From NCBI RefSeq assembly GCF_963921235.1, contig NC_086108.1, positions 86,492,001-86,556,000 on the forward strand: a stretch of DNA of 64,000 nt, read 5' to 3'. This document shows, one piece after another, positions 13,894-57,140 of the stretch. This DNA is from Mobula hypostoma. Its lineage: Eukaryota. Below the pieces are notes generated by a model that saw only the letters and a list, made by a program, of their open reading frames with translations, was not told the DNA's origin and did no database searches. The translations under genes and the position numbers were made by a program. Numbering within the stretch: position 1 is the first letter of the stretch; the number at the start of each line of letters is the position of its first letter.

Positions 13894-13938
13894 CCTGTCA
13901 ATGGGGGTCAAAGAATCCAAAACTGGATGCCTTGTCTC

Positions 13939-17855: not shown

Positions 17856-17939
17856 TAATAGCAGATCAAGGATTTCACAATCTTTTGTTGGATTTCCATG
17901 TATTGATTTGGAAAACTTTTCTGATCACATTTGGCAAAC

Positions 17940-28829: not shown

Positions 28830-29179
28830 CAAGACCATTAAACTCAAAGATACAGGAGCAGAATTAAGCTATTTGGCCCATCAAGTCTGCTCCAACATTT
28901 CATCATGGCTCATCCAATTTTCCTCTCAGCCCCAATCTCCTGCCTTCTCCCTGTATCCCTTCATGCCCTGACCAATCAAGAATCTATCAACCTGTGCCTT
29001 AAATATACGTAAAGACTTGGCCTCCACAGCTAGCAGTGGCAATGAATTCCACAGATTCACCACTCTCTGGCTAAAGAAATTCCTCCTCCTCTCCATTCTA
29101 AAAGAACACCCCTCTATTCTTAGGAGGTGTCCTCTGGTCTTAGACTCTCCCACCATACAAAACAGCCTCTCCACATCCA
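28830..29179 (-). mobile_element. CR1-type LINE 3' end; host of the satellite-bearing LTR (resumes at ~47035)
   Basis: Minus-strand ORF RRNFFSQRVVNLWNSLP...FKAQVDRFL; the empty site reads ACATCCA-CTCTA-TCAAGGCCTTTC. Confidence 0.85.
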
Positions 29180-30232
29180 CTCTATGTCATGGTCTGGTCC
29201 ATAAAGTCCGCGTTCCGGTTCATGGTCCAGTCTGTGAACTCCGGACTCCGGGTCTTCCAGCTGTCCCTTGTTTCAGATGGGCTTAATCATAGGCACCTGA
29301 TGCTTGTCTTGGGGTTGGGAATCTACGTGGCCCTGGGTTCAAGTGTGGTTGGTGGTTTGTCTCGTTGGTATCCTGTCCTTGCCTCTGTGGAGTAAGTCAG
29401 GCTGTCTTTGCCATTACCCTGCAGTTGGATCTGTCCCTTCCTGTCCTTCCCTCCGTTGGGTAAGCTAGGCCATCTTTGCCATTACCCTGACGCTGGACTG
29501 TTTCCTTCCCTTCACCTTCTGCCTGAAGCCTTGCCTGCAACCTCGCCTGAAGCCTTGGCCTGAAGACTTGCCTGCAATCTCACCTGTATTGCTGTCAAGT
29601 TCTACTGCCAGAGCAAGACCGCAGTCTTGCTGTGCCTAGATAAGGAGCTGTCTTTTGTTGTTAGGAACTGTCTCTGTGTCCACGCTTTCGCTAAGTAGCT
29701 CTGGCTATTTGCCGCTACCTTGAGTTGGGAACCATCTCTGCGTCCACGCCTTCGCTAGGTAGGTCCTGCGGTTTGCTGCTACCTAGTGTTGGGAACTGTC
29801 TTGTGTTCAGCATTCTGTGTATGAGTCCCGGCCCTATGTCCCATTCCCAAGGAGGGGAACCAGCTCTGTATTGCATGTTCCTGTCTCCCTCGACCACGGC
29901 TCTGCATTCCTATCTCCCTCAACTAAGTCTAGGCTTTGTGTTCTCATCCTGTCCATGTGCCTCGCCCAGCTCAGGAGTACCTTGCCCAGCCTGGTGCTGG
30001 GGTTCCCTCATCCTGTTCAGGAGTGTCTCGTCCTGTCCAAGCCGCGCCCAGGAGTCTCTCATTCTGTCCAAGCACCTCGGCCTATGCAGGACTTCCACGT
30101 CCAGTCCTGTTGCCACTCCTCATACTGTAGCCACGTCCTGTCCTTGCCAAGATCCTAGTCCCGAGACCTAGCCTTCACCCAGGTTCCGGTTCCAAGTAAA
30201 GACCCAGGTTCCAAGTCCCAACCAAGTCCCAG

Positions 30233-33200
30233 GTTCTGTGTCCCTGTCCAGGCCCTGGTTCCGGAGTTCCGTGTCACTAGTCCAGGCCCTGGTTCCGGAG
30301 TTCTGTGTCACTGTCCAGGCTCTGGTTCCGGAGTTCTGTATCACTAGTCCAGGCTCTGGTTCCGGAGTTCTGTGTCACTAGACCAGGCTCCGGTTCCGGA
30401 GTTCTGTGTCCCTGTCCAGGCTCTGGTTCCGGAGTTCTATGTCACTAGTCCAGGCTCTGGTTCCGGAGTTCCGTGTCACTAGTCCAGGCTCTGGTTCTGG
30501 AGTTTGGTGTCCCTGTCCAGGCGCTGGTTCCGGAGTTCCGTGTCCCTGTCCAGGCTCTGGTTCTGGAGTACAGTGTCACTAGTCCAGTCTCTGGTTCCGG
30601 AGTTCCGTGTCCCAGTCTAGGCTCTGGTTCCGGAATTCCGTGTCCCTGTCTAGCCTCTGGTTCCGGAGTTCTGTGTCCCTGTCCAGGCTCTGGTTCCGGA
30701 GTTCCGTGTCACTAGTCCAGGCTCTGGTTCCGGAGTTCTGTGTCCCTGTCCAGGCTCTGGTTCCAGAGTTCTGTGTCACTACACCAGGCTCTGGTTCCGG
30801 AGTTCCGTGTCCCTGTCCAGGCTCTGGTTCCGGAATTCCGTGTCCCTGGCTAGGCTCTGGTTCCGGAGTTCTGTGTCCCTGTCCAGGCTCTGGTTCCGGA
30901 GTTCGGTGTCACTAGTCCAGGCTCTGGTTACGGAGTTCTGTGTCCCTGTCCAGGCTCTGGTTCCAGAGTTCTGTGTCACTACACCAGGCTCTGCTTCCGG
31001 AGTTCCGTGTCCCTGTCCAGGCTCTGGTTCCGGAGTTCCGTGTCACTAGTCCAGGCTCTGGTTCCGGAGTTCTGTGTCACTAATCCAGGCCCTGGTTCCG
31101 GAGTTCTGTGTCCCTATCCAGGCCCTGGTTCCAGAGTTCTATGTCCCTGTCCAGGCTCTGGTTCCGGAGTTCCATGTCACTAGTCCAGGCTCTGGTTCCG
31201 GAGTTCTGTGTTCCTGTCCAGGCTCTGATTCTGGAGTTCCATGTCACTAGTCCAGGTCTGGTTCTGGAGTTCTGTGTCACTAGTCCAGGCTCTGGTTCCG
31301 GAGTTCTGTGTCGCTGTCCAGGCTCTGGTTCCGGAGTTCCGTGTCCCTGTCCAGGCTCTGGTTCCGGAGTTCTGTGTCACTAGTCCAGGCTCTGGTTCCG
31401 GAGTTCTGTGTCACTAGTCCAGGCTCTGGTTCCAGAGTTCTGTGTCAATAATCCAGGCCCTGGTTCCGGAGTTCCGTGTCCCTGTCCAGGCTCTGGTTCC
31501 GGAGTTCTGTGTCACTAGTCCAGGCTCTGGTTCCGGAATTCCGTGTCCCTGTCTAGGCTCTGGTTCCGGAGTTCTGTGTCACTAGTCTAGGCTCTGGTTC
31601 CGGAGTTCTGTGTCAATAGTTCAGGCTCTGGTTCCAGAGTTCCGTGTCACTAGTCCAGGCTCTGGTTCCAGAGTTCTGTGTCACTAGTCCAGGCTCTGGT
31701 TCCGGAGTTCTGTGTCCCTGTCTAGGCTCTGTTCCGGAGTTCTGTGTCATAGTCCAGGCTCTGCTTCCGGAGTTCCGTGTCCCTGTCCAGGCTCTGGTTC
31801 CGGAGTTCTGTGTCCCTGTCCAGGCTCTGGTTCCGGAGTTCCGTGTCCCTGTCTAGGCTCTGGTTCCGGAGTTCTGTGTCCCTGTCCAGGCTCTGTTTCC
31901 GGAGTTCCTGGTCACTAGTCCAGGCTCTGGTTCCGGAGTACTGTGTCCCTCTCAAGGCTCTGGTTCCGGAGTTCCGTGTCGCTAATCCAGGCCCTGGTTC
32001 CGGAGTTCTGTGTCCCTGTCCAGGCTCTGGTTCCGGAGTTCCGTGTCACTAGTCCAGGCACTGGTTCCGGAGTTCCGTGTCACTAGTCCAGGCTCTGCTT
32101 CCGGAGTTCCGTGTCCCTGTCCAGGCTCTGGTTCCGGAGTTCCGTGTCACTAGTCCAGGCTCTGGTTCCGGAGTTCTGTGTCACTAATCCAGGCCCTGGT
32201 TCCGGAGTTCTGTGTCCCTATCCAGGCCCTGGTTCCAGAGTTCTATGTCCCTGTCCAGGCTCTGGTTCCGGAGTTCCGTGTCACTAGTCCAGGCTCTGGT
32301 TCCGAAGTTCTGTGTTCCTGTCCAGGCTCTGATTCTGGAGTTCCATGTCACTAGTCCAGGTCTGGTTCTGGAGTTCTGTGTCACTAGTCCAGGCTCTGGT
32401 TCCGGAGTTCCGTGTCCCTGTCCAGGCCCCGGTTCCGGAGTTCCGTGTCCCTGTCCAGGCTCTGGTTCCGGAGTTCTGTGTCACTAGTCCAGGCTCTGGT
32501 TCCGGAGTTCTGTGTCACTCGTCCAGGCTCTGGTTCCGGAGTTCCATGTCCCTGTCCAGGCTCTGGTTCCGGAGTTCTGTGTCACTAGTCCAGGCTCTGG
32601 TTCCGGAGTTCCGTGTCACTAGTCCAGGCTCTGGTTCCGGAGTTCTGTGTCACTAATCCAGGCCCTGGTTCCGGAGTTCCGTGTCCCTGTCCAGGCTCTG
32701 GTTCCGGAGTTCTGTGTCACTAGTCCAGGCTCTGGTTCCGGAATTCCGTGTCACTGTCTAGGCTCTGGTTCCGGAGTTCTGTGTCACTAGTCTAGGCTCT
32801 GGTTCCAGAGTTCTGTGTCACTAGTTCAGGCTCTGGTTCCAGAGTTCCGTGTCACTAGTCCAGGTTCTGGTTCCAGAGTTCTGTGTCACTAGTCCAGGCT
32901 CTGGTTCCGGAGTTCTGTGTCCCTGTCTAGGCTCTGTTCCGGAGTTCTGTGTCACTAGTCCAGGCTCTGCTTCCGGAGTTCCGTGTCCCTGTCCAGGCTC
33001 TGGTTCCGGAGTTCTGTGTCACTAGTCCAGGCTCTGGTTCCGGAGTTCTGTGTCCCTGTCCAGGCTCTGGTTCCGGAGTTCCTGGTCACTAGTCCAGGCT
33101 CTGGTTCCGGAGTACTGTGTCCCTCTCAAGGCTCTGGTTCCGGAGTTCCGTGTCGCTAATCCAGGCCCTGGTTCCGGTGTTCCGTGTCACTAGTCCAGGC

Positions 33201-36200
33201 ACTGGTTCCGGAGTTCCGTGTTACATAGTCCAGGCTATGGTTCCGGAGTTCTGTGTCCCTGTCCAGGCTCTGGTTCCGGAGTTCCATGTCACTAGTCCAG
33301 GCTCTGGTTCTGGAGTTCTGTGTCACTAGTCCAGGCCCTGGTTCCGGAGTTCCATGTCGCTGTCCAGGCTCTGGTTCCGGAGTTCTGTGTCACTAGTCCA
33401 GGCTCTGGTTCTGGAGTTCTGTGTCCCTGTCCAGGCTCTGGTTCCGGAGTTCCCTGTCACTAGTCCAGGCTCTAGTTCCGGAGTTCTGTGTCCCTGTCCA
33501 GGCCCTGGTTCTGGAGTTCTGTGTCCCTGTCCAGGCTCTGGTTCCGCAGTTCCTGGTCACTAGTCCAGGCTCTGGTTCCGGAGTACTGTGTCCCTCTCAA
33601 GGCTCTGGTTCCGGAGTTCCGTGTCGCTAATCCAGGCCCTGGTTCCGGAGTTCTGTGTCCCTGTCCAGGCTCTGGTTCCGGAGTTCCGTGTCACTAGTCC
33701 AGGCACTGGTTCCGGAGTTCCGTGTTACATAGTCCAGGCTATGGTTCCGGAGTTCTGTGTCCCTGTCCAGGCTCTGGTTCCGGAGTTCCATGTCACTAGT
33801 CCAGGCTCTGGTTCCGGAGTTCTGTGTCACTAGTCCAGGCCCTGGTTCCGGAGTTCCGTGTCGCTGTCCAGGCTCTGGTTCCGGAGTTCCGTGTCACTAG
33901 TCCAGGCTCTGGTTCCGGAGTTCTGTGTCACTAGTCTAGGCTCTGGTTCCAGAGTTCTGTGTCACTAGTTCCAGGCTCTGGTTCCAGAGTTCCGTGTCAC
34001 TAGTCCAGGCTCTGGTTCCAGAGTTCCGTGTCACTAGTACAGGCTCTGGTTCCAGAGTTCTGTGTCACTAGTCCAGGCTCTGGTTCCGGAGTTCTGTGTC
34101 CCTGTCTAGGCTCTGTTCCGGAGTTCTGTGTCACTAGTCCAGGCTCTGCTTCCGGAGTTCCGTGTCACTAGTCCAGGCTCTGGTTCCGGAGTTCTGTGTC
34201 ACTAATCCAGGCCCTGGTTCCGGAGTTCCGTGTCGCTGTCCAGGCTCTGGTTCCGGAGTTCTGTGTCACTAGTCCAGGCTCTGGTTCCGGAGTTCTGTGT
34301 CACTAGTCTAGGCTCTGGTTCCAGAGTTCTGTGTCACTAGTTCAGGCTCTGGTTCCAGAGTTCCGTGTCACTAGTCCAGGCTCTGGTTCCAGAGTTCCGT
34401 GTCACTAGTCCAGGCTCTGGTTCCAGAGTTCTGTGTCACTAGTCCAGGCTCTGGTTCCGGAGTTCTGTGTCCCTGTCTAGGCTCTGTTCCGGAGTTCTGT
34501 GTCACTAGTCCAGGCTCTGCTTCCGGAGTTCCGTGTCCCTGTCCAGGCTCTGGTTCCGGAGTTCTGTGTCACTAGTCCAGGCTCTGGTTCCGGAGTTCTG
34601 TGTCCCTGTCCAGGCTCTGGTTCCGGAGTTCCTGGTCACTAGTCCAGGCTCTGGTTCCGGAGTACTGTGTCCCTCTCAAGGCTCTGGTTCCGGAGTTCCG
34701 TGTCGCTAATCCAGGCCCTGGTTCCGGTGTTCCGTGTCACTAGTCCAGGCACTGGTTCCGGAGTTCCGTGTTACATAGTCCAGGCTATGGTTCCGGAGTT
34801 CTGTGTCCCTGTCCAGGCTCTGGTTCCGGAGTTCCATGTCACTAGTCCAGGCTCTGGTTCTGGAGTTCTGTGTCACTAGTCCAGGCCCTGGTTCCGGAGT
34901 TCCATGTCGCTGTCTAGGCTCTGGTTCCGGAGTTCTGTGTCACTAGTCCAGGCTCTGGTTCTGGAGTTCTGTGTCCCTGTCCAGGCTCTGGTTCCAGAGT
35001 TCCCTGTCACTAGTCCAGGCTCTAGTTCCGGAGTTCTGTGTCCCTGTCCAGGCTCTGGTTCTGGAGTTCTGTGTCCCTGTCCAGGCTCTGGTTCCGCAGT
35101 TCCTGGTCACTAGTCCAGGCTCTGGTTCCGGAGTACTGTGTCCCTCTCAAGGCTCTGGTTCCGGAGTTCCGTGTCGCTAATCCAGGCCCTGGTTCCGGAG
35201 TTCTGTGTCCCTGTCCAGGCTCTGGTTCCGGAGTTCCGTGTCACTAGTCCAGGCACTGGTTCCGGAGTTCCGTGTTACATAGTCCAGGCTATGGTTCCGG
35301 AGTTCTGTGTCCCTGTCCAGGCTCTGGTTCCGGAGTTCCTTGTCACTAGTCCAGGCTCTGGTTCTGGAGTTCTGTGTCACTAGTCCAGGCCCTGGTTCCG
35401 GAGTTCGGTGTCGCTGTCCAGGCTCTGGTTCCGGAGTTCTGTGTCACTAGTCCAGGCTCTGGTTCTGGAGTTCTGTGTCCCTGTCCAGGCTCTGGTTCCG
35501 GAGTTCCCTCTCACTAGTCCAGGCTCTAGTTCCGGAGTTCTGTGTCCCTGTCCAGGCCCTGGTTCTGGAGTACTGTGTCCCTGTCCAGGCTATGGTTCCG
35601 GAGTTCTGTGTCCCTGTCCAGGCTCTGGTTCCGGAGTTCCATGTCACTAGTCCAGGCTCTGGTTCTGGAGTTCTGTGTCACTAGTCCAGGCCCTGGTTCC
35701 GGAGTTCCGTGTCGCTGTCCAGGCTCTGGTTCCGGAGTTCTGTGTCACTAGTCCAGGCTCTGGTTCTGGAGTTCTGTGTCCCTGTCCAGGCTCTGGTTCC
35801 GGAGTTCCCTCTCACTAGTCCAGGCTCTAGTGCCAGAGTTCTGTGTCCCTGTCCAGGCCCTGGTTCTGGAGTTCTGTGTCCCTGTCCAGGCTCTGGTTCA
35901 GGAGTTCCGTGTCACTAGTCCAGGCACTGGTTCCGGAGTTCCGTGTTACATAGTCCAGGCTATGGTTCCGGAGTTTGGTGTCCCTGTCCAGGCGCTGGTT
36001 CCGGAGTTCCGTGTCCCTGTCCAGGCTCTGGTTCTGGAGTACAGTGTCACTAGTCCAGTCTCTGGTTCCGGAGTTCCGTGTCCCAGTCTAGGCTCTGGTT
36101 CCGGAATTCCGTGTCCCTGTCTAGCCTCTGGTTCCGGAGTTCTGTGTCCCTGTCCAGGCTCTGGTTCCGGAGTTCCGTGTCACTAGTCCAGGCTCTGGTT

Positions 36201-39200
36201 CCGGAGTTCTGTGTCCCTGTCCAGGCTCTGGTTCCAGAGTTCTGTGTCACTACACCAGGCTCTGGTTCCGGAGTTCCGTGTCCCTGTCTAGGCTCTGGTT
36301 CCGGAATTCCGTGTCCCTGGCTAGGCTCTGGTTCCGGAGTTCTGTGTCCCTGTCCAGGCTCTGGTTCCGGAGTTCGGTGTCACTAGTCCAGGCTCTGGTT
36401 CCGGAGTTCTGTGTCCCTGTCCAGGCTCTGGTTCCGGAATTCCGTGTCCCTGGCTAGGCTCTGGTTCCGGAGTTCTGTGTCCCTGTCCAGGCTCTGGTTC
36501 CGGAGTTCGGTGTCACTAGTCCAGGCTCTGGTTCCGGAGTTCTGTGTCCCTGTCCAGGCTCTGGTTCCAGAGTTCTGTGTCACTACACCAGGCTCTGCTT
36601 CCGGAGTTCCGTGTCCCTGTCCAGCCTCTGGTTCCGGAGTTCCGTGTCACTAGTCCAGGCTCTGGTTCCGGAGTTCTGTGTCACTAATCCAGGCCCTGGT
36701 TCCGGAGTTCTGTGTCCCTATCCAGGCCCTGGTTCCAGAGTTCTATGTCCCTGTCCAGGCTCTGGTTCCGGAGTTCCATGTCACTAGTCCAGGCTCTGGT
36801 TCCGGAGTTCTGTGTTCCTGTCCAGGCTCTGATTCTGGAGTTCCATGTCACTAGTCCAGGTCTGGTTCTGGAGTTCTGTGTCACTAGTCCAGGCTCTGGT
36901 TCCGGAGTTCTGTGTCGCTGTCCAGGCTCTGGTTCCGGAGTTCCGTGTCCCTGTCCAGTCTCTGGTTCCGGAGTTCTGTGTCACTAGTCCAGGCTCTGGT
37001 TCCGGAGTTCTGTGTCACTAGTCCAGGCTCTGGTTCCGGAGTTCTGTGTCACTAATCCAGGCCCTGGTTCCGGAGTTCCGTGTCCCTGTCCAGGCTCTGG
37101 TTCCGGAGTTCTGTGTCACTAGTCCAGGCTCTGGTTCCGGAATTCCGTGTCCCTGTCTAGGCTCTGGTTCCGGAGTTCTGTGTCACTAGTCTAGGCTCTG
37201 GTTCCGGAGTTCTGTGTCAATAGTTCAGGCTCTGGTTCCAGAGTTCCGTGTCACTAGTCCAGGCTCTGGTTCTAGAGTTCTGTGTCACTAGTCCAGGCTC
37301 TGGTTCCGGAGTTCTGTGTCCCTGTCTAGGCTCTGTTCCGGAGTTCTGTGTCATAGTCCAGGCTCTGCTTCCGGAGTTCCGTGTCCCTGTCCAGGCTCTG
37401 GTTCCGGAGTTCTGTGTCCCTGTCCAGGCTCTGGTTCCGGAGTTCCGTGTCCCTGTCTAGGCTCTGGTTCCGGAGTTCTGTGTCCCTGTCCAGGCTCTGG
37501 TTCCGGAGTTCCTGGTCACTAGTCCAGGCTCTGGTTCCGGAGTACTGTGTCCCTCTCAAGGCTCTGGTTCCGGAGTTCTGTGTCCCTGTCCAGGCTCTGG
37601 TTCCGGAGTTCCATGTCACTAGTCCAGGCACTGGTTCCGGAGTTCCGTGTCACTAGTCCAGGCTCTGCTTCCGGAGTTCCGTGTCCCTGTCCAGGCTCTG
37701 GTTCCGGAGTTCTGTGTCACTAGTCCAGGCTCTGGTTCCGGAGTTCCGTGTCCCTGTCCAGGCCCCGGTTCCGGAGTTCCGTGTCCCTGTCCAGGCTCTG
37801 GTTCCGGAGTTCTGTGTCACTAGTCCAGGCTCTGGTTCCGGAGTTCTGTGTCACTCGTCCAGGCTCTGGTTCCGGAGTTCCATGTCCCTGTCCAGGCTCT
37901 GGTTCCGGAGTTCTGTGTCACTAGTCCAGGCTCTGGTTCCGGAGTTCCGTGTCACTAGTCCAGGCTCTGGTTCCGGAGTTCTGTGTCACTAATCCAGGCC
38001 CTGGTTCCGGAGTTCCGTGTCCCTGTCCAGGCTCTGGTTCCGGAGTTCTGTGTCACTAGTCCAGGCTCTGGTTCCGGAATTCCGTGTCACTGTCTAGGCT
38101 CTGGTTCCGGAGTTCTGTGTCACTAGTCTAGGCTCTGGTTCCAGAGTTCTGTGTCACTAGTTCAGGCTCTGGTTCCAGAGTTCCGTGTCACTAGTCCAGT
38201 CTCTGGTTCCAGAGTTCTGTGTCACTAGTCCAGGCTCTGGTTCCGGAGTTCTGTGTCCCTGTCTAGGCTCTGTTCCGGAGTTCTGTGTCACTAGTCCAGG
38301 CTCTGCTTCCGGAGTTCCGTGTCCCTGTCCAGGCTCTGGTTCCGGAGTTCTGTGTCACTAGTCCAGGCTCTGGTTCCGGAGTTCTGTGTCCCTGTCCAGG
38401 CTCTGGTTCCGGAGTTCCTGGTCACTAGTCCAGGCTCTGGTTCCGGAGTACTGTGTCCCTCTCAAGGCTCTGGTTCCGGAGTTCCGTGTCGCTAATCCAG
38501 GCCCTGGTTCCGGTGTTCCGTGTCACTAGTCCAGGCACTCGTTCCGGAGTTCCGTGTTACATAGTCCAGGCTATGGTTCCGGAGTTCTGTGTCCCTGTCC
38601 AGGCTCTGGTTCCGGAGTTCCATGTCACTAGTCCAGGCTCTGGTTCTGGAGTTCTGTGTCACTAGTCCAGGCCCTGGTTCCGGAGTTCCATGTCGCTGTC
38701 TAGGCTCTGGTTCCGGAGTTCTGTGTCACTAGTCCAGGCTCTGGTTCTGGAGTTCTGTGTCCCTGTCCAGGCTCTGGTTCCAGAGTTCCCTGTCACTAGT
38801 CCAGGCTCTAGTTCCGGAGTTCTGTGTCCCTGTCCAGGCCCTGGTTCTGGAGTTCTGTGTCCCTGTCCAGGCTCTGGTTCCGCAGTTCCTGGTCACTAGT
38901 CCAGGCTCTGGTTCCGGAGTACTGTGTCCCTCTCAAGGCTCTGGTTCCGGAGTTCCGTGTCGCTAATCCAGGCCCTGGTTCCGGAGTTCTGTGTCCCTGT
39001 CCAGGCTCTGGTTCCGGAGTTCCGTGTCACTAGTCCAGGCACTGGTTCCGGAGTTCCGTGTTACATAGTCCAGGCTATGGTTCCGGAGTTCTGTGTCCCT
39101 GTCCAGGCTCTGGTTCCGGAGTTCCATGTCACTAGTCCAGGCTCTGGTTCTGGAGTTCTGTGTCACTAGTCCAGGCCCTGGTTCCGGAGTTCCGTGTCGC

Positions 39201-42200
39201 TGTCCAGGCTCTGGTTCCGGAGTTCTGTGTCACTAGTCCAGGCTCTGGTTCTGGAGTTCTGTGTCCCTGTCCAGGCTCTGGTTCCGGAGTTCCCTCTCAC
39301 TAGTCCAGGCTCTAGTTCCGGAGTTCTGTGTCCCTGTCCAGGCCCTGGTTCTGGAGTACTGTGTCCCTGTCCAGGCTATGGTTCCGGAGTTCTGTGTCCC
39401 TGTCCAGGCTCTGGTTCCGGAGTTCCATGTCACTAGTCCAGGCTCTGGTTCTGGAGTTCTGTGTCACTAGTCCAGGCCCTGGTTCCGGAGTTCCGTGTCG
39501 CTGTCCAGGCTCTGGTTCCGGAGTTCTGTGTCACTAGTCCAGGCTCTGGTTCTGGAGTTCTGTGTCCCTGTCCAGGCTCTGGTTCCGGAGTTCCTCTCAC
39601 TAGTCCAGGCTCTAGTTACAGAGTTCTGTGTCCCTGTCCAGGCCCTGGTTCTGGAGTTCTGTGTCCCTGTCCAGGCTCTGGTTCAGGAGTTCCGTGTCAC
39701 TAGTCCAGGCACTGGTTCCGGAGTTCCGTGTTACATAGTCCAGGCTATGGTTCCGGAGTTCTGTGTCCCTGTCCAGGCGCTGGTTCCGGAGTTCCGTGTC
39801 CCTGTCCAGGCTCTGGTTCTGGAGTACAGTGTCACTAGTCCAGTCTCTGGTTCCGGAGTTCCGTGTCCCAGTCTAGGCTCTGGTTCCGGAATTCCGTGTC
39901 CCTGTCTAGCCTCTGGTTCCGGAGTTCTGTGTCCCTGTCCAGGCTCTGGTTCCGGAGTTCCGTGTCACTAGTCCAGGCTCTGGTTCCGGAGTTCTGTGTC
40001 CCTGTCCAGGCTCTGGTTCCAGAGTTCTGTGTCACTACACCAGGCTCTGGTTCCGGAGTTCCGTGTCCCTGTCTAGGCTCTGGTTCCGGAATTCCGTGTC
40101 CCTGGCTAGGCTCTGGTTCCGGAGTTCTGTGTCCCTGTCCAGGCTCTGGTTCCGGAGTTCTGTGTCACTAGTCCAGGCTCTGGTTCCGGAGTTCTGTGTC
40201 ACTCGTCCAGGCTCTGGTTCCGGAGTTCCGTGTCACTAGTCCAGGCTCTGGTTCCGGAGTTCTGTGTCCCTGTCCAGGCTCTGGTTCCGGAGTTCGGTGT
40301 CACTAGTCCAGGCTCTGGTTCCGGAGTTCTGTGTCCCTGTCCAGGCTCTGGTTCCAGAGTTCTGTGTCACTACACCAGGCTCTGCTTCCGGAGTTCCGTG
40401 TCCCTGTCCAGCCTCTGGTTCCGGAGTTCCGTGTCACTAGTCCAGGCTCTGGTTCCGGAGTTCCCTGTCACTAGTCCAGGCTCTAGTTCCGGAGTTCTGT
40501 GTCCCTATCCAGGCCCTGGTTCCAGAGTTCTATGTCCCTGTCCAGGCTCTGGTTCCGGAGTTCCATGTCACTAGTCCAGGCTCTGGTTCCGGAGTTCTGT
40601 GTTCCTGTCCAGGCTCTGATTCTGGAGTTCCATGTCACTAGTCCAGGCTCTGGTTCTGGAGTTCTGTGTCACTAGTCCAGGCTCTGGTTCCGGAGTTCTG
40701 TGTCGCTGTCCAGGCTCTGGTTCCGGAGTTCCGTGTCCCTGTCCAGGCTCTGGTTCCGGAGTTCTGTGTCACTAGTCCAGGCTCTGGTTCCGGAGTTCTG
40801 TGTCACTAGTCCAGGCTCTGGTTCCGGAGTTCTGTGTCACTAATCCAGGCCCTGGTTCCGGAGTTCCGTGTCCCTGTCCAGGCTCTGGTTCCGGAGTTCT
40901 GTGTCACTAGTCCAGGCTCTGGTTCCGGAATTCCGTGTCCCTCTCTAGGCTCTGGTTCCGGAGTTCTGTGTCACTAGTCTAGGCTCTGGTTCCGGAGTTC
41001 TGTGTCAANNNNNNNNNNNNNNNNNNNNNNNNNNNNNNNNNNNNNNNNNNNNNNNNNNNNNNNNNNNNNNNNNNNNNNNNNNNNNNNNNNNNNNNNNNNN
41101 NNNNNNNNNNNNNNNNNNNNNNNNNNNNNNNNNNNNNNNNNNNNNNNNNNNNNNNNNNNNNNNNNNNNNNNNNNNNNNNNNNNNNNNNNNNNNNNNNNNN
41201 NNNNNNNNTGTTCCGTGTCACTAGTCCAGGCACTGGTTCCGGAGTTCCGTGTTACATAGTCCAGGCTATGGTTCCGGAGTTCTGTGTCCCTGTCCAGGCT
41301 CTGGTTCCGGAGTTCCATGTCACTAGTCCAGGCTCTGGTTCTGGAGTTCTGTGTCACTAGTCCAGGCCCTGGTTCCGGAGTTCCATGTCGCTGTCCAGGC
41401 TCTGGTTCCGGAGTTCTGTGTCACTAGTCCAGGCTCTGGTTCTGGAGTTCTGTGTCCCTGTCCAGGCTCTGGTTCCGGAGTTCCCTGTCACTAGTCCAGG
41501 CTCTAGTTCCGGAGTTCTGTGTCCCTGTCCAGGCCCTGGTTCTGGAGTTCTGTGTCCCTGTCCAGGCTCTGGTTCCGCAGTTCCTGGTCACTAGTCCAGG
41601 CTCTGGTTCCGGAGTACTGTGTCCCTCTCAAGGCTCTGGTTCCGGAGTTCCGTGTCGCTAATCCAGGCCCTGGTTCCGGAGTTCTGTGTCCCTGTCCAGG
41701 CTCTGGTTCCGGAGTTCCGTGTCACTAGTCCAGGCACTGGTTCCGGAGTTCCGTGTTACATAGTCCAGGCTATGGTTCCGGAGTTCTGTGTCCCTGTCCA
41801 GGCTCTGGTTCCGGAGTTCCATGTCACTAGTCCAGGCTCTGGTTCTGGAGTTCTGTGTCACTAGTCCAGGCCCTGGTTCCGGAGTTCCGTGTCGCTGTCC
41901 AGGCTCTGGTTCCGGAGTTCTGTGTCACTAGTCCAGGCTCTGGTTCTGGAGTTCTGTGTCCCTGTCCAGGCTCTGGTTCCGGAGTTCCCTCTCACTAGTC
42001 CAGGCTCTGGTTCCGGAATTCCGTGTCCCTGTCCAGGCCCCGGTTCCGGAGTTCCGTGTCCCTGTCCAGGCTCTGGTTCCGGAGTTCTGTGTCACTAGTC
42101 CAGGCTCTGGTTCCGGAGTTCTGTGTCACTCGTCCAGGCTCTGGTTCCGGAGTTCCATGTCCCTGTCCAGGCTCTGGTTCCGGAGTTCTGTGTCACTAGT

Positions 42201-45200
42201 CCAGGCTCTGGGTCCGGAGTTCCGTGTCACTAGTCCAGGCTCTGGTCCCGGAGTTCTGTGTCACTAATCCAGGCCCTGGTTCCGGAGTTCCGTGTCGCTG
42301 TCCAGGCTCTGGTTCCGGAGTTCTGTGTCACTAGTCCAGGCTCTGGTTCCGGAGTTCTGTGTCACTAGTCTAGGCTCTGGTTCCAGAGTTCTGTGTCACT
42401 AGTTCAGGCTCTGGTTCCAGAGTTCCGTGTCACTAGTCCAGGCTCTGGTTCCAGAGTTCCGTGTCACTAGTCCAGGCTCTGGTTCCAGAGTTCTGTGTCA
42501 CTAGTCCAGGCTTTGGTTCCGGAGTTCTGTGTCCCTGTCTAGGCTCTGTTCCGGAGTTCTGTGTCACTAGTCCAGGCTCTGCTTCCGGAGTTCCGTGTCC
42601 CTGTCCAGGCTCTGGTTCCGGAGTTCTGTGTCACTAGTCCAGGCTCTGGTTCCGGAGTTCTGTGTCCCTGTCCAGGCTCTGGTTCCGGAGTTCCTGGTCA
42701 CTAGTCCAGGCTCTGGTTCCGGAGTACTGTGTCCCTCTCAAGGCTCTGGTTCCGGAGTTCCGTGTCGCTAATCCAGGCCCTGGTTCCGGTGTTCCGTGTC
42801 ACTAGTCCAGGCACTGGTTCCGGAGTTCCGTGTTACATAGTCCAGGCTATGGTTCCGGAGTTCTGTGTCCCTGTCCAGGCTCTGGTTCCGGAGTTCCATG
42901 TCACTAGTCCAGGCTCTGGTTCTGGAGTTCTGTGTCACTAGTCCAGGCCCTGGTTCCGGAGTTCCGTGTCGCTGTCTAGGCTCTGGTTCCGGAGTTCTGT
43001 GTCACTAGTCCAGGCTCTGGTTCTGGAGTTCTGTGTCCCTGTCCAGGCTCTGGTTCCGGAGTTCCCTGTCACTAGTCCAGGCTCTAGTTCCGGAGTTCTG
43101 TGTCCCTGTCCAGGCCCTGGTTCTGGAGTTCTGTGTCCCTGTCCAGGCTCTGGTTCCGCAGTTCCTGGTCACTAGTCCAGGCTCTGGTTCCGGAGTACTG
43201 TGTCCCTCTCAAGGCTCTGGTTCCGGAGTTCCGTGTCGCTAATCCAGGCCCTGGTTCCGGAGTTCTGTGTCCCTGTCCAGGCTCTGGTTCCGGAGTTCCG
43301 TGTCACTAGTCCAGGCACTGGTTCCGGAGTTCCGTGTTACATAGTCCAGGCTATGGTTCCGGAGTTCTGTGTCCCTGTCCAGGCTCTGGTTCCGGAGTTC
43401 CATGTCACTAGTCCAGGCTCTGGTTCTGGAGTTCTGTGTCACTAGTCCAGGACCTGGTTCCGGTGTTCCGTGTCGCTGTCCAGGCTCTGGTTCCGGAGTT
43501 CTGTGTCACTAGTCCAGGCTCTGGTTCTGGAGTTCTGTGTCCCTGTCCAGGCTCTGGTTCCGGAGTTCCCTCTCACTAGTCCAGGCTCTAGTTCCGGAGT
43601 TCTGTGTCCCTGTCCAGGCCCTGGTTCTGGAGTTCTGTGTCCCTGTCCAGGCTATGGTTCCGGAGTTCTGTGTCCCTGTCCAGGCTCTGGTTCCGGAGTT
43701 CCATGTCACTAGTCCACGCTCTGGTTCTGGAGTTCTGTGTCACTAGTCCAGGCCCTGGTTCCGGAGTTCCGTGTCGCTGTCCAGGCTCTGGTTCCGGAGT
43801 TCTGTGTCACTAGTCCAGGCTCTGGTTCTGGAGTTCTGTGTCCCTGTCCAGGCTCTGGTTCCGGAGTTCCCTCTCACTAGTCCAGGCTCTAGTTCCAGAG
43901 TTCTGTGTCCCTGTCCAGGCCCTGGTTCTGGAGTTCTGTGTCCCTGTCCAGGCTCTGGTTCAGGAGTTCCGTTTCACTAGTCCAGGCACTGGTTCCGGAG
44001 TTCCGTGTTACATAGTCCAGGCTCTGGTTCCGGAGTTCTGTGTCCCTGTCCAGGCTCTGGTTCCGGAGTTCCATGTCACTAGTCCAGGCTCTGGTTCTGG
44101 AGTTCTGTGTCACTAGTCCAGGCCCTGGTTCCGGAGTTCCATGTCGCTGTCCAGGCTCTGGTTCCGGAGTTCTGTGTCACTAGTCCAGGCTCTGGTTCTG
44201 GAGTTCTGTGTCCCTGTCCAGGCTCTGGTTCCGGAGTTCCCTGTCACTAGTCCAGGCTCTAGTTCCGGAGTTCTGTGTCCCTGTCCAGGCCCTGGTTCCG
44301 GAGTTCCGTGTCCCTGTCCAGGCTCTGGTTCCGCAGTTCCTGGTCACTAGTCCAGGCTCTGGTTCCGGAGTACTGTGTCCCTCTCAAGGCTCTGGTTCCG
44401 GAGTTCCGTGTCGCTAATCCAGGCCCTGGTTCCGGAGTTCTGTGTCCCTGTCCAGGCTCTGGTTCCAGAGTTCCGTGTCACTAGTCCAGGCACTGGTTCC
44501 GGAGTTCCGTGTTACATAGTCCAGGCTATGGTTCCGGAGTTCTGTGTCCCTGTCCAGGCTCTGGTTCCGGAGTTCCATGTCACTAGTCCAGGCTCTGGTT
44601 CTGGAGTTCTGTGTCACTAGTCCAGGCCCTGGTTCCGGAGTTCCGTGTCGCTGTCCAGGCTCTGGTTCCGGAGTTCTGTGTCAGTAGTCCAGGCTCTGGT
44701 TCTAGAGTTCTGTGTCCCTGTCCAGGCTCTGGTTCCGGAGTTCCCTCTCACTAGTCCAGGCTCTAGTTCCGGAGTTCTGTGTCCCTGTCCAGGCCCTGGT
44801 TCTGGAGTTCTGCGTCCCTGTCCAGGCTCTGGTTCCGCAGTTCTGTGTCCCTGTCCAGGCTCTGGTTCCGGAGTTCCATGTCACTAGTCCAGGCTCTGGT
44901 TCTGGAGTTCTGTGTCACTAGTCCAGGCTCTGGTTCCAGAGTTCTGTGTCCCTCTCCAGGCTCTGGTTCCGGAGTTCCGTGTCACTAGTCCAGGCTCTGG
45001 TTCCGGAGTTCCGAGTCACTAGTCCAGGCTCTGGTTCCGGAGTTCCATGTCACTAGTCCAGGCTCTGGTTCCGGAGTTCCGTGTCGCTGTCCAGGCTCTG
45101 GTTCCGGAGTTCTGTGTCACTAGTCCAGGCTCTGGTTCCGGAGTTCCGTGTCCCTGTCTAGGCTCTGGTTCCGGAATTCCGTGTCCCTGTCTAGGCTCTG

Positions 45201-46872
45201 GTTCCGGAGTTCTGTGTCCCTGTACAGGCTCTGGTTCCGGAGTTCGGTGTCACTAGTCCAGGCTCTGGTTCCGGAGTTCTGTGTCCCTGTCCAGGCTCTG
45301 GTTCCAGAGTTCTGTGTCACTACACCAGGCTCTGCTTCCGGAGTTCCGTGTCCCTGTCCAGGCTCTGGTTCCGGAGTTCCATGTCACTAGTCTAGGTCTG
45401 GTTCTGGAGTTCTGTGTCACTAGTCCAGGCTCTGGTTCCGGAGTTCTGTGTCCCTGTCCAGGCTCTGGTTCCAGAGTTCTGTGTCACTACACCAGGCTCT
45501 GCTTCCGGAGTTCTGTGTTCCTGTCCAGGCTCTGATTCTGGAGTTCCATGTCACTAGTCTAGGTCTGGTTCTGGAGTTCTGTGTCACTAGTCCAGGCTCT
45601 GGTTCCGGAGTTCTGTGTCGCTGTCCAGGCTCTGGTTCCGGAGTTCTGTGTCACTAGTCCAGGCTCTGGTTCCGTAGTTCCATGTCCCTGTCCAGGCCCC
45701 GGTTCCGGAGTTCTGTGTTCCTGTCCAGGCTCTGGTTCCGGAGTTCTGTGTCACTAGTCCAGGCTCTGGTTCCGGAGTTCTGTGTCACTCGTCCAGGCTC
45801 TGGTTCCGGAGTTCCATGTCCCTGTCCAGGCTCTGGTTCCGGAGTTCTGTGTCACTAGTCCAGGCTCTGGTTCCGGAGTTCCGTGTCACTAGTCCAGGCT
45901 CTGGTTCCGGAGTTCTGTGTCACTAATCCAGGCCCTGGTTCCGGAATTCCGTGTCCCTGTCCAGGCTCTGGTTCCGGAGTTCTGTGTCACTAGTCCAGGC
46001 TCTGGTTCCGGAGTTCTGTGTCCCTGTCCAGGCTCTGGTTCCGGAGTTCCGTGTCCCTGTCTAGGCTCTGGTTCCGGAGTTCCATGTCGCTAATCCAGGC
46101 CCTGGTTCCGGAGTTCTGTGTCCCTGTCCAGGCTCTGGTTCCGGAGTTCCATGTCACTAGTCCAGGCTCTGGTTCTGGAGTTCTGTGTCACTAGTCCAGG
46201 CCCTGGTTCCGGAGTTCCGTGTCGCTGTCCAGGCTCTGGTTCCGGAGTTCTGTGTCACTAGTCCAGGCTCTGGTTCTGGAGTTCTGTGTCCCTGTCCAGG
46301 CTCTGGTTCCGGAGTTCCCTGTCACTAGTCCAGGCTCTAGTTCCGGAGTTCTGTGTCCCTGTCCAGGCCCTGGTTCTGGAGTTCTGTGTCCCTGTCCAGG
46401 CTCTGGTTCCGCAGTTCTGTGTCCCTGTCCAGGCTCTGGTTCCGGAGTTCCATGTCACTAGTCCAGGCTCTGGTTCTGGAGTTCTGTGTCACTAGTCCAG
46501 GCTCTGTTTCCAGAGTTCTGTGTCCCTCTCCAGGCTCTGGTTCCAGAGTTCCGTGTCACTAGTCCAGGCTCTGGTTCCGGAGTTCCGAGTCACTAGTCCA
46601 GGCTCTGGTTCCGGAGTTCCATGTCACTAGTCCAGGCTCTGGTTCCGGAGTTCTGTGTCCCTGTCTAGGCTCTAGTTCCGGAGTTCTGTGTCCCTGTTCA
46701 GGCTCTGGTTCCGGAGTTCTGTGCCACTAGTCCAGGCTCTGGTTCCGGAGTTCTGTGTCCCTGTCTAGGTTCTAGTTCCAGAGTTCCGTGTCACTAGTCC
46801 AGGCTCTAGTTCCGGAGTTCTGGGTCCTTGTCCAGGCTCTGGTTCCAGAGTTCCGTGTCACTAGTCCAGGCT
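30233..46872. repeat. 33/34-bp tandem satellite, roughly 490 units, with higher-order repeats
   Basis: Monomer GTCCAGGCTCTGGTTCCGGAGTTC(T/C)GTGTC followed by CCT (33 bp) or ACTA (34 bp). The unit count is estimated as length divided by 33.5. Confidence 0.98.
41009..41208. other. Assembly gap (200 N) within the satellite
   Basis: Run of exactly 200 N, most likely a placeholder size. Confidence 0.98.
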
Positions 46873-48176
46873 CCTTGTTCCCAGTTCCTTGTCCTGGTCC
46901 CGCTTGCCAAGCCAATGTCCTAGCCCAAGTCTGTGTTCTTGTCCCAGCTCTCTAGTCAGGTCCTGTTCCTATTACTTCAGTGTCTGTGTCTTGCATTTGG
47001 GTCCGCCCCCAGTGCCCCCCGTTACGACACTCTATCAAGGCCTTTCTCCATTCTATAGGTTATATAGAATGCCTATTGACATTCAACAGCATTTTACTTC
47101 AATGTAAGTAAATTCTCACCATCTTCAATCTGTGGGCCTCTTTCATTAGGTGGTGTCAGCTCTGTTTAATGAAGATTGAGGGAGATGGGAAGATGCGATC
47201 TGCAATTCATGACATAATTTTATTTGTATTTTCAAATGATTAAAGGGCTGCAGTAGAAACACAGCAAAGAAGCAATGGGCCAGATGGCTCCTTTTATTCA
47301 GTGTTTAAAACATACTACAAACGTGTATTAGCGTAGGTCAGATTTTCATATCTGATAATATATTGATCTTTGGCTTGCAGTGCGAATGGTGTAAGCAGAA
47401 CAAACATAATCAGACCCATTCGAGTACCATCCACCAACTCCCTTCATTTGGTTGGCAAGAAGCATTAATTACTTTGATGTTAAGGTTTCATTTACATTCA
47501 AGTGACATCGGTTTAAGTGCAAATAGGTAGCTCTGAAATTGGGAGGTTTAAAAATATGGGAGCCATAACAGGTACTAAACTTAAGCTCTTAAGGGAAGCA
47601 TTGGCTGTTAGTGATTTTTTTTTAATGATGCCTCTATTGATTGATTGATATGCAAGTCAGCTTGTTAACAAACTGCCAGAATCCCATTGAATCCTAGCAA
47701 CAATCTTAGACATGGTTTGTAACAATTGGTGATGAGAGAAGACAGATGAACGCTGAAATAGAACATAGAACAGTACAGCACAGGAACAGGACCTTTGACC
47801 CACAATGTTGTCCTGAGTCAATTAAATTGGTAATTAAATGGCCAACAAGAAGCAGTGTAAGAAATGATGAAGGTATCATATACACACAGAGAACATTCTG
47901 GTGCTCAAGTATGAACACTGGAGGGGTTGTCTGTGTGTTCGTGAAGCAGGCAAGCTGGTATGCCAGCTTATATGTGAACAGCACAGGATTCCCTGTAGGT
48001 GAGAGAGTTAATGCTTCCACAGGGAGCAACTACCCACAAGGTTATTGAGAAACTGATTGTTACTTAACTTGCCTGCAAAGGCTCACTGGATTTTATTCCT
48101 GTAGTGTCCTCTCCTAACAGCAACCTACTAATTGGGAGTAAACTAGCAGTTGCTGAAGCTGTTGATGGTTGCTGAC

Positions 48177-53728: not shown

Positions 53729-56700
53729 ATGACTCAAGCAGGTGGACGATCGACTATGAGCGTAGTTTGTATCTGTGGCAAGGTGTGCAAATACCTGAGA
53801 GGTCTGAAGATCCACCAGACAAAGATGGCCTGCTCGAGGAGGAAACAAGTGAAGCAACGCACAGGAGCAGTAGCTAGTACTACAAGCTCTGTGGTGCTGA
53901 CTACAGAACCTGGTCAGACAGAGGAGGAGCCCAGTCGGAGTCACCCCACAGTGCCCGGAGCCTCCAAGCAACACAAGTCCGCCCAGTGAGCAGAAAGTCG
54001 GAACAGCGTCAGGCGAAGTGGCCTGCCGCTAACAAGAAGGAGTGGCTCCAGATGGATGAGGACGTAGACAAGATTCTGGAGGCGATATCGAAGGGCAATG
54101 CTGACTAGGAGCTCCAGACTATGTGCACCCTCATAATGAGCATAGGCTCAGAATGGTTTGGCGTCAAGGAAAAGCATGGAACAAGTAATCCAGCGAGACC
54201 AAACCGGCAGGAACTGAAGATCAGCCAGCTGAGACAAGACCTCAAATCTCTGAAGCACCAATTTAAGTTGGCCAAGGAGGAGGAGAAAACTGGCCTGTCA
54301 GACCTCACAGATATCATGAGGAGGAGGCTCATCACACTCAGGTGGGCTGAGTGGCACCGAAGGAAGGGCAAGGAGAGGGCCCAAAGCGCAGCGCTTTCAT
54401 TACCAATCCCTTCGGCTTCACCAAGAGGATACTAGGACAGAAGCGAAGTGGCCACCTCACTTGTTCTGTAGTGGAGATAAACCAACATCTCAGTATCACT
54501 TGCAGTGACACCTCGAAAGAGCAGGACCTCGGCCCGTGTGAGGCACTGGTGATACCTCCAGAACCGGTGACCCAATTCGACATTTCTGAACCCACCCTGA
54601 AGGAGGTCAAAGAAGCAGTCGAAGCAGCAAGAGCAAGTTCCACCCCTAGCCCCAGTGGAGTGCCTTACAAAGACTACAAGCAGTGCCCAAGGCTCCTTGT
54701 GCGACTCTGGAAGATCTTAAAGGTGATCTGGCAGAGAGGAAAGGTCGCTGCTCAGTGGAGGCACGCGGAGGGTGTCTGGATACCAAAAGAGGAGGATTCA
54801 AGCAACATCGAGCAGTTTTATATTATCTCGCTGCTCAGCGTTGAAGGGAAGATCTTCAAGATTGTGGCCCAATGTTTAACTGAGTTCCTCTTGAAGAATG
54901 GATACATAGACACCTCAGTACAGAAGGGGGGAGTCCCAGGAGTACCTGGATGCCTGGGGCACACAGGAGTGGTGGTCCAGCTGATCCGGGAGGCAAGGGA
55001 GAACAGAGGAGACCTTGCAGCACTCTGGTTAGGCCTAACCAATGCCTATGGATCCATCCCACACAAACTCATTGAAACAGCACTGACAAGACATCACGTT
55101 CCAGAGATGATCCGAAACCTCATTCTGGATTATTACAGCGACTTCAGGTTGAGAGTGTCCTCAGGGTCAGTAACATCCGCCTGGCATCGGCTGGAGAAGG
55201 GCACAATCACTGGCTGCACAATCTCGGTGCCACTCTTCTGATTGGCCATGAACCTGATTGTCAAGTCAGCGGAGGTGGGATGTAGAGGCCCCACGTCTAG
55301 ATCTGGTACTCGGCAGCCCCCATAAGAGCATTCATGGATGACCTGGTGGTGATGGCAACATCCGTCCCTGGGTGCAGATGGCTCCTTCCAGGGCTGGAAT
55401 GGCTCATCTCATGGGCAAGGATGAGCTTTAAACCAGCCAAGTCCAGGTCTCTGGTCCTGAAGAAGGGAAGAGTGGCCGACTGGTTCCGCTTTACCCTGGG
55501 AGGGATCCAGATTCCAACGGTGACAGGAAAACCAGTCAAGGGCCTGGGCAAGATCTTTGACAGTTCCCTGAAGGACACAGCCGCACTTCAACAAACCAGG
55601 AGTGAGGAGTGACTTGATAACTTGGCTCACCGCAATTGATAAACCGGAGCTTCCAGGAAAATTCAAAACCTGGATGTACCAACACGGAGTCCTGCCAAGG
55701 CCATTCTGGCCCCTTCTAGTCTACGAGGTGCCAATGTCAACAGTGGGGGCTCTAGGGAAGACCATCAGTCAGTTTCTCCGGAGGTCACTGGGTCTCCCCC
55801 GGACCTCAAGCTGCATTGTCCTGTATGGGTGTTCCACCAAGCTGCAGCTCCCCGTCAGCGGCCTATCAGAGGAGTTCAAAATCACTCGAGCCAGGGAGGT
55901 TATGATGTACCGAGACTCCTCTGATGTTAAAGTCGCTTCAGCAGGAATCCGCGTAAAGACCGGAAGGAAGTGGCAGGCACAGGAAGCTGTCGACAGAGCG
56001 GAGGTACGGCTGCGGCTCAACATTTTGGTGGCCACTGTGGCGGTGGGGCGGGAAAGACTGGGCTGTTTTCCCAAACCACGCTACGACAAAACCCGTGGAA
56101 AGGAGAAGTATCAACTGGTTCAGGATGAGATATGAGCGGAAGTGGAGGAAGAACGATACAGCAAGATGGCCGGCATGTACAAACAAGGCGCCTGGACTAG
56201 ATGGGAGCATGTGGAACCTCGCAAGCTCACCTGGACAGAGCTCTGGAGGGCCGAACCATTGCGCATCAAGTTTCTCATCCAATCAGTCTATGATGTTCTC
56301 CCAAACCCGGCCAACCTGCACAGGTGGGGCATGGCAAACACTCCAGCATGCCAACTGTGCCAGAAGAGGGGCACCTTGGAACATATCCTAAGTTGCTGCC
56401 CAAAGGCATTGGGGGAAGGGCGAAACTGCTGGCGCCATGACCAAATCTTAAGGTCTATGGCGGATGCAATCAGCACAGCGATTCAAGACAGCAAAAATCA
56501 GCACGCTCCCAAACAGTCCATCACCTTTATTAGAGCGGGGGAGAAGGCTCAACATCGGCCTAGTTCCTTGAGAGGGCTTCTTGCCACTGCACGAGACTGG
56601 CAGCTCCAAGCAGACCTAGGGAGGCACCTCGAGTTCCCAGAGAACATCGCAGCCACTCCGCTCCGTCCGGACATGGTGTTAATATCGGAGTCTACAAAGC

Positions 56701-57060: not shown

Positions 57061-57140
57061 ATGATTAAAGGGCCAAAACCCCCTGTGACCCCGGGTCATC
57101 ACTGAAGACGTGTCCAAGTAGCACCAGAAGGTGTATTCTG
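56862..57140 (+). repeat. 3' end of the HERO-like element (downstream repeat copy)
   Basis: Contiguous with the endonuclease coding region; matches 53218-53497. Confidence 0.93.

Follow-up and report, generated by a model that had tools for sequence, protein, structure and literature searches.

A giant single-locus minisatellite of 33- and 34-bp units within a solo LTR, probably grown in place from a seed motif

Results

The window, i.e., the whole 64,000-nt stretch of DNA that was analysed, contains a solo LTR on the plus strand at 29185-47029, which starts with TGTCA at 29185, ends with CGACA at 47029 and is flanked by the target-site duplication (TSD) CTCTA at 29180-29184 and 47030-47034, as identified from the sequence and by alignment. 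The TG...CA termini and a TSD within the 4-6-bp range enclose one LTR, and a long tandem array lies wholly between them, as the original prediction had it. The LTR splits a high-copy interspersed repeat, which resembles a LINE fragment. On comparison with paralogs, the left portion of this repeat occupies 28830-29184 (approximate start), and its continuation beyond the TSD lies at 47035-47061; 13 of the 14 paralogs show this continuation directly, the 14th after an internal duplication. The 5′ part of the LTR (29185-30232), analysed by a repeat scan and by matching windows to genomic copies, contains small tandem modules of 68, 12 and 64 bp and is a mosaic, with 29185 to about 29500 resembling copy set B and about 29900-30232 resembling copy set A. 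The 3′ tail (46874-47029) is, like the head, of the set-B type on copy comparison. The non-array portion amounts to 1,196 bp, and the LTRs of the family measure about 1.1-1.3 kb.

This LTR family, which bears a resemblance to Gypsy and may belong to the Ty3/Gypsy superfamily, has at least 4,117 copies. Relatives with an LTR-internal-LTR organization carry an internal region of 161-171 bp ending in a G-run, the polypurine tract before the 3′ LTR (L017, L019, L040, L055 and L056), with similar regions in four more loci; the internal regions observed were short and non-coding only. TRIMs are miniature LTR elements whose terminal repeats do not exceed a few hundred bases; assignment to this class was rejected, given that LTRs of this length are too long for it, although the internal part is TRIM-sized. 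When six of the ten ORFs of at least 150 codons in the window were searched against Pfam, only zf-RVT (56136-57065) and Integrase_H2C2 (13887-14393) were found; the LTR ORF had no Pfam match, and no host gene was recognised in the six tested ORFs.

The array (30233-46881, plus strand; TRF and unit intervals) is composed of two interspersed unit types, of 33 and 34 bp, in about 490 units. TRF on the window returned a period of 33/34 with 495.9 copies (gap included) and 87% matches, and the 488 unit intervals comprised 222 of 33 bp, 243 of 34 bp, 7 of 32 bp, 15 of 35 bp and one across the gap, in line with the predicted number of about 490. The sequenced part amounts to 16,449 bases (16.4 kb), and because an assembly gap, represented by a single run of 200 N (41009-41208), hides part of the array, its true length is equal to or greater than this value. 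Both array edges pass unbroken into LTR sequence. Among the units, 117 distinct variants and 39-55 distinct substitutions were counted; at non-CpG sites the units differ by 2.6-3.6% from their commonest form, and their pairwise divergence is 8-10%. The CpG o/e ratio was 0.42 in the array, 0.39 in the LTR and 0.33 in the remaining window, and in view of this similarity a CpG-island argument was dropped. Folding of four units (134 nt), without a shuffle control, gave weak and mixed hairpins of -13 to -15.5 kcal/mol, and therefore a structure-driven mechanism is not claimed.

Most units (413 of 488) belong to duplicated blocks of at least 10 units that differ by about 0.8%, and the 18 blocks of 15 or more units are 0.80% apart. 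The block duplications span 0.3-5.6 kb with a divergence of 0.4-0.8%, and are nested at offsets of 15, 35, 46-47, 113 and 159-167 units, with no regular higher-order repeat. The locus is interstitial (86.5 Mb of a 118-Mb contig). To call it a satellite, as was done originally, overstates the case: with one locus in the 200 contigs searched and 16.4 kb sequenced plus the gap, it falls short of the length and multi-locus distribution of a classical satellite, and is a giant minisatellite that shows no trace of having spread.

An ancestral-type seed is retained at the right edge of the array (46821-46873, plus strand; copy comparison), where the array's only TGGGTCCTT unit precedes the two copies, at 46830 and 46864, of the direct repeat GTCCAGGCTC. 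This 10-bp direct repeat, 34 bp apart, corresponds to the 34-bp unit. It is overlapped by a GTTC register with a spacing of 33 bp that matches the 33-bp unit; the latter's ancestral form persists in the rightmost unit of the array and in no other. The GTCCAGGCTC pair, at a spacing of 34-35 bp, was present in 26 of the 29 set-A loci and in 1 of the 29 set-B loci. The unit is flanked by a direct repeat in the 5-10-bp range in the parent element and lies in register in unexpanded copies. Among the loci examined the seed was single at 61 of 62 seed sites, with L038 carrying a short run, and 59 single seeds were found elsewhere in the genome of the window (genome A). Since common words were skipped, a DNA search with a 301-bp array query missed the array itself; the query was usable for paralogs only, and exact patterns were used for counting. 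The exact unit occurs 132 times genome-wide, 111 in the window and 21 outside. Abundance of the monomer outside the LTR family, which had been named in advance as counter-evidence, was not seen: the 10 outside matches inspected were each a single unit within an LTR copy, and the motifs that span unit-to-unit junctions fell in the array in 125 of 125 and 129 of 129 cases, with 0 for the controls (200 contigs searched).

A second LTR of the same broad family lies upstream on the plus strand (17940-19043, 1,104 bp), with its own TSD, CAAAC, at 17935-17939 and 19044-19048. It was aligned to both non-array parts of the array LTR, with identities of 82.4% (618 of 750 aligned columns) and 81.2% (168 of 207) and many long indels. 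Its second GTCCAGG.TC copy is found 25 bp after the first, not 34 bp. In every 80-bp window of the array LTR other copies were closer than this one, for instance at 78/80 versus 46/80 in the tail and at 71-75/80 versus 0-35/80 in the head.

We then turn to organism B, which diverges from genome A by 2.1-3.4% (about 2%) and carries the LTR at the same site: in three runs of a single sample, contigs extend across the LTR end into its flank with 7 differences in 262, and the LTR pieces are 96-98% like the array LTR versus 86-88% for the best paralogs. The ratio of unit-bin depth to single-copy depth, a measure of contig depth and not of copy number, was 460 in run X1 versus 12.7 and 12.8 in X6 and X7. 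The unit signal of organism B was 16-36 times lower, with a residue of 13x (mean) and 44x (peak) the single-copy depth. Since X5, read to 84% only, misses high-depth contigs and lacks other high-depth repeats as well, its near-zero unit depth was set aside and X6 and X7 were used. Among the matches listed, no organism B contig spanned the seed from left to right or bridged the left junction. Pieces of 46817-46890 were present at single-copy depth in X5, X6 and X7 with 3-5 differences, not identical across the three runs; they could represent either the orthologous seed or paralogs and were not used as evidence. X9 and X20 (organisms C and H; share 0.20) yielded no long single-copy locus piece among the matches listed and are uninformative on presence or absence. 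Organism B shares the insertion but apparently lacks the long array, and its orthologous LTR is probably a true unexpanded state.

Discussion

We are confident, on the evidence above, that the array belongs to a single locus within one solo LTR, and that it likely arose by slippage or unequal exchange at the seed motif, likely followed by multi-unit block duplication; no function is predicted. The comparison of sequences strongly supports a birth in place from about one LTR unit. The short direct repeats of the seed would have been the partners of the initial slippage or unequal exchange, and blocks of several units would then have been duplicated repeatedly, presumably by recombination. The original prediction of an in-place expansion from about 1 to about 490 units stands as regards this starting point, given the single seeds and the junctions unique to the array, but not as regards the before/after pair that was claimed for it.

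That pair was formed with the LTR 10 kb upstream, and the view that the latter is the direct unexpanded counterpart of the array LTR, either a local duplicate or its progenitor, is now very improbable. The two LTRs do share their orientation, lie 10 kb apart, at a proximity expected by chance in about 3-12% of cases for 4,117-20,000 randomly placed copies, and are collinear on either side of the seed. The upstream element was rightly recognized as a real LTR, with its own TSD and homology on both sides, but the claim of a sister with the same flanks does not hold at about 82% identity with long indels, when 29 other genomic copies match the tail at 92-96% and others are better in every 80-bp window. 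The TSDs differ (CAAAC versus CTCTA), and a seed spacing of 25 bp speaks against the neighbour's monomer-like seed as the pre-expansion state. It is a distant paralog of a different subfamily, one of thousands of copies, and the true unexpanded states include other copies of the seed-bearing subfamily. That the LTR took up a pre-existing satellite, older than the LTR family, by insertion or capture has no positive support, although satellite-rich unplaced sequence may be missing from the assembly; it is extremely unlikely, given that set-A LTR copies contain the unit in register, that the tandem junctions are confined to this locus and that LTR sequence continues seamlessly from both array edges. 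Nor is it credible that the gap joins two different loci. It is a 200-N placeholder, the segment before the array is of set-A type and the tail of set-B type, and an array-spanning contig was absent among the matches listed; but head and tail of the LTR are both of set B, 35 distinct unit variants, including rare ones, are common to both sides of the gap, a 637-bp exact repeat connects 33178 and 41209 across it, and contigs of run X1 are identical to both flanks and bridge the right junction. The TSD had been correctly read as support for the join, and the resumed flank repeat reinforces it.

Recruitment of the array to a function, as a nascent centromere, a heterochromatin seed or an amplified enhancer motif, would fit its size and nested block structure, and the LTR10 VNTRs are described as multiplying a transcription-factor motif (PMC466953). 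Yet we regard it as very doubtful: the locus is single and interstitial, the assembled array does not exceed tens of kb and a close relative apparently lacks it, and no host gene was recognised among the six ORFs tested in the window. The timing of growth is less clear-cut. We lean towards most of it having followed the split from organism B, the alternative being loss in B, and the 39-55 distinct substitutions are compatible with a post-split origin. The expected divergence per lineage since the split is roughly 1.1-1.7%, which is exceeded by the unit divergence of 2.6-3.6%, so that a short proto-array may predate the split. A larger departure, which concerns timing only, is that an array or proto-array of tens of units was already present and B contracted, so that an after/after pair would be compared. 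The same non-CpG divergence and the pairwise 8-10%, both above half of the A/B divergence, speak for it, and the residual signal of B could hide a short array. We nevertheless consider it rather unlikely: the block duplications that form most of the length are younger than the split, the 59 single seeds at other sites of genome A would alone yield a B-like residue, the bins at 46640-46681 (all 33-bp units) have a depth of 0-3 in X6 and 0.6-10.6 in X7 versus 976-1558 in X1, and the 'goes back' joint was found in X1 only, among the matches listed.

The units of the mouse Ms6-hm minisatellites are reportedly of 4-5 bp, much shorter than the 33/34 bp of this locus. These minisatellites lie in MaLR LTRs (Kelly 1994, as listed in PMC6947457) and are likewise expanded single-locus tandem repeats born in a vertebrate LTR, but of another LTR class. 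In the model of Haber and Louis (1998), minisatellites are born from flanking direct repeats of 5-10 bp (PMC6947457, PMC3389668). As in that model, a short direct repeat (here 10 bp, 34 bp apart) within a transposable element delimits the unit, and later amplification by slippage, conversion or unequal crossing-over is proposed; unlike in it, two overlapping registers led to two interspersed unit types, and about 490 units are present versus the roughly 100 quoted for minisatellites. Human LTR10A and LTR10F also have a tandem repeat inside vertebrate LTRs, a copy-variable VNTR of 28-30 bp with a predicted somatic expansion of >11,600 bp, but theirs is family-wide and carries an AP1 motif and enhancer activity (PMC466953), whereas nearly all copies here are single-unit and the assembled genome itself carries the expansion. 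In Lathyrus sativus a short motif of the dispersed Ogre LTR retroelements occasionally gave rise to long arrays, and the elements are common to sister species without the amplified satellite; that system differs in being from a plant, in residing in the 3′ UTR rather than the LTR, and in being multi-locus and pericentromeric (PMC7004042). The squamate SINE-derived satellites (sSat), of up to 320-950 units, similarly show alternating locus-specific unit variants and orthologous loci that differ in unit number between sister species, but they have a SINE source and thousands of loci versus one per module (PMC10702118).

A literature search that covered few subscription papers found no description in cartilaginous fish or of such a locus type. 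The origin of tandem arrays from transposon motifs is well documented, so the finding leaves models unchanged, and its value is that of an unusually complete specimen, with the exact seed, both element ends, the TSD and a duplication history that can be read, and with a close relative in which the insertion is shared but the array apparently absent. The rate of the passage from one unit to hundreds could be measured directly with long reads from two or three related species, and the same data would test whether units in a growing array mutate faster than the flanks. We tentatively suggest, as a possibility short of an expectation, that the LTR family might be a recurrent array factory, in which 5/55-, 7/24/31- and 33/34-bp modules grew independently to 1-16+ kb at different loci, and that this locus might be a datable birth, never expanded in B, from 1 to 490+ units within less than about 1% divergence and with unit diversification 2-3 times faster than that of the flanks. 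The two other arrays examined in genome A lie in a related LTR subfamily, and together with such arrays the locus lets one ask why few among thousands of copies expand.

The tandem array lies within a single LTR

A tandem array with a 33/34-bp period occupies positions 30233-46881 (495.9 copies including the gap, with 87% matches, as scored by TRF). It is interrupted by a single gap of 200 N at 41009-41208 and contains 16,449 sequenced bases, its true size depending on the gap. Splitting at a fuzzy anchor delimited 488 intervals. Most measure 34 bp (243) or 33 bp (222), with a few of 35 bp (15) or 32 bp (7) and a single interval that spans the gap; 117 distinct sequences are present among them. 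As originally predicted, the array is enclosed by one LTR, which runs from a TGTCA start at 29185 to a CGACA end at 47029 and has the TSD CTCTA on both sides. This LTR is a mosaic: its head and tail match one common set of copies (set B, 29 loci found by a search with the tail), and its middle, including the seed of the array, matches another (set A, 29 non-self loci obtained when the 200 bases adjoining the array on its left were used as the query). A comparable switch from set A to set B was observed at another copy, L073.

The scaffold join, which had been argued from the matching TSD, holds, and it is reinforced by the continuity of the flanking repeat, by the agreement of LTR head and tail in matching set B, and by unit variants shared over the gap. 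The sequence into which the LTR is inserted is a repeat of high copy number (5,112 first-look candidates). Of 14 further copies of this repeat, 13 have the left-flank sequence continuing, with nothing in between, as the 17-35 bases found after the right TSD; in the fourteenth, an internal duplication lies between the two. Among the 35 distinct unit variants common to the two sides of the gap, a rare one of 35 bp is found seven times on the left and five times on the right. At 637 bp, the array's longest exact repeat joins 33178 to the first bases after the gap. A misjoin at this position is unlikely.

Relatives of the element occur with two LTRs, between which lie 161-171 bp of non-coding sequence that end in a G-run. 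Two LTRs of 1.1-1.4 kb around ~160-180 bp of non-coding internal sequence were found at L002, L017, L019, L029, L040, L043, L054, L055, L056 and L117; these copies represent a non-autonomous form of the family. At G000:C1 78,779,015-78,793,265, the LTR tail motif is found five times, at ~3.5-kb spacing, which suggests that whole elements, or a larger unit, are arrayed there in tandem. Remnants of retroelement ORFs were also detected in the window, zf-RVT (E 1e-06) at 56136-57065, within region 54351-57068, and Integrase_H2C2 (E 1.3e-05) at 13887-14393, within region 13887-14396.

The unit derives from a motif of the LTR

Set-A loci carry one copy of the seed motif GTTC-TGGGTCCTT-GTCCAGGCTC-TGGTTCCGGAGTTC-CGTGTCACTA-GTCCAGGCTC. 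Its 10-bp direct repeat is spaced 34-35 bp in 26 of 29 set-A loci vs 1 of 29 set-B loci, and duplication at this repeat would generate the 34-bp unit; the two GTTC of the seed are 33 bp apart, matching the 33-bp unit. A unit with the ancestral TGGGTCCTT is present once in the array, as the rightmost unit, and all others have the derived form. The exact unit occurs 132 times genome-wide, 111 of them in the window; of the 21 remaining occurrences, the first 10 were inspected, and all were single units within LTR copies. A CpG-tolerant version occurs 59 times outside the window. Since the seed is single in 61 of the 62 sites examined in LTR loci (doubled in L038), and two motifs specific to the tandem context are confined to this array (125/125 and 129/129 occurrences; reversed controls, 0), the unit is LTR sequence, and the array is single-locus in the 200 contigs searched. 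Hence, the core of the original prediction, an array born in the LTR from its own motif, holds, and the label of satellite does not; a single-locus giant minisatellite fits instead.

Small independent expansions are present in other LTR copies. TRF scores the seed run of L038 as 3.3 copies of 34 bp and, in L040, finds a 25-bp unit in 5.3 copies at the position of the seed. In L060, a module farther upstream is expanded to 7.3 x 64 bp.

The upstream LTR is not the unexpanded counterpart

The LTR at 17940-19043 (TG..CA ends, own TSD CAAAC) had been proposed as the state before expansion, a pairing that fails on identity, on better-matching copies and on seed spacing. Its aligned columns are 82.4% (618/750) and 81.2% (168/207) identical to the array LTR, and the alignment contains long indels. 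A search with the array LTR's tail yields 29 non-self matches at 92-96%, other copies surpassed the neighbour in 16 of 16 tested 80-bp windows, and the GTCCAGG.TC copies of the neighbour are spaced 25 bp, not 34 bp. The closeness of the two LTRs is uncommon, yet uninformative: the assembly contains 4,117 occurrences of an exact 24-base motif of the LTR tail, and the chance of an LTR copy within ~11 kb is 3-12% for 4,117-20,000 random copies.

Growth of the array

Duplicated blocks of at least 10 units contain 413 of the 488 units, and both array ends lie mostly outside them. The 18 blocks of at least 15 units differ overall by 0.80%; 83 units make up the largest, which is 2.8 kb long and lies at an offset of 3,786 bp. 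Block members differ from the block majority by 0.40%. Single units are far more diverse than blocks (8.3-9.7% pairwise; at non-CpG sites, 2.6-3.6% relative to the most frequent form). A diversified proto-array would thus have formed first and been multiplied later by kb-scale duplications, possibly through unequal exchange or conversion.

The insertion and the array in a related organism

Six different sequencing runs, out of 23, were compared at the locus. Run X1, from the species of the window (organism A), matched both flanks in long difference-free pieces and gave a contig across the right LTR end; it is possibly the assembly source and lends no independent support. Contigs of X5, X6 and X7, from one sample of a related organism (organism B), bridged the LTR end and flank. 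Organism B differed from the window by 2.1% in the flanks (23/1073) and by 3.4% in LTR pieces (13/382), and the best paralogs of the same LTR part have 86-88% identity. Because of this bridging, and because the LTR pieces of B are closer than the best paralogs, the insertion is older than the A/B split. With an orthologous insertion, organism B is a better control than the neighbouring LTR.

In eight unit-only bins, depth relative to single-copy depth was 460 in X1 vs 12.7 in X6 and 12.8 in X7, i.e., 36-fold lower in B, or 16-26-fold once the dispersed LTR tail is used for scaling. The X5 value (0.35) was set aside, as only 84% of this run was read. No long array was detected in B from these contig depths, which are not copy numbers, and a single unit was not demonstrated, no B contig being seen to cross the seed. 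We consider a gain of the array in A the probable history. The units have diverged two to three times as far as expected per lineage, which counts against a simple birth after the split and would favour an older proto-array, lost or static in B; this we regard as the less likely history, given that the residual unit depth in B is of the size expected from dozens of single seeds and that bins of 33-bp units are almost empty there. The 39-55 distinct substitutions among units fit a birth after the split and an older history alike.

Known and further LTR-born arrays

The array locus is real, well-anchored and mechanistically legible, an instance of an already known route from transposon motif to tandem DNA. 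A model in which minisatellites are seeded by 5-10 bp direct repeats in transposable elements is described in PMC6947457 and PMC3389668, which give 7,276 human tandem repeats of such origin; Ms6-hm in MaLR is listed (Kelly 1994, cited in PMC6947457). Human LTR10 has 28-30 bp VNTRs with a predicted expansion of >11,600 bp (PMC466953), tandem repeats of Ogre became satellites in one species, sister species keeping the elements only (PMC7004042), and SINE-born arrays of up to 320-950 units alternate between variants and differ in length among orthologous loci (PMC10702118). No report of such an array in cartilaginous fish was found in the literature searched.

At G000:C50 54.618-54.627 Mb (L128:2042 to L129:1003), an LTR that belongs to a related subfamily and is 86-87% like L015 contains two internal arrays from other modules than the window array, a GCCTT/55-bp repeat of ~1.1 kb and a 7/24/31-bp repeat of ~7 kb. 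The far end of this LTR is present, with the 5-bp TSD TGATC, so that both ends and a TSD around an array are not peculiar to the window. On the minus strand at ~35.59-35.60 Mb of the same contig (L131-L132), a related LTR head (89% to L015) is followed by >9.4 kb of a 7-bp-based repeat, the same as at 54.6 Mb. Since both arrays best match the L015 subfamily, a module of this subfamily has expanded at least twice. In addition, four loci at G000:C90 5.17, 5.58 and 6.54 Mb and C154 0.225 Mb (L031-L037, L039, L135) repeat a 31-bp unit 19-29 times; the unit is 75-78% like the window array, and an AC microsatellite and a 60-bp x 3-4 repeat adjoin it. With only weak similarity to this LTR, these loci may represent a duplicated segment or another element family.
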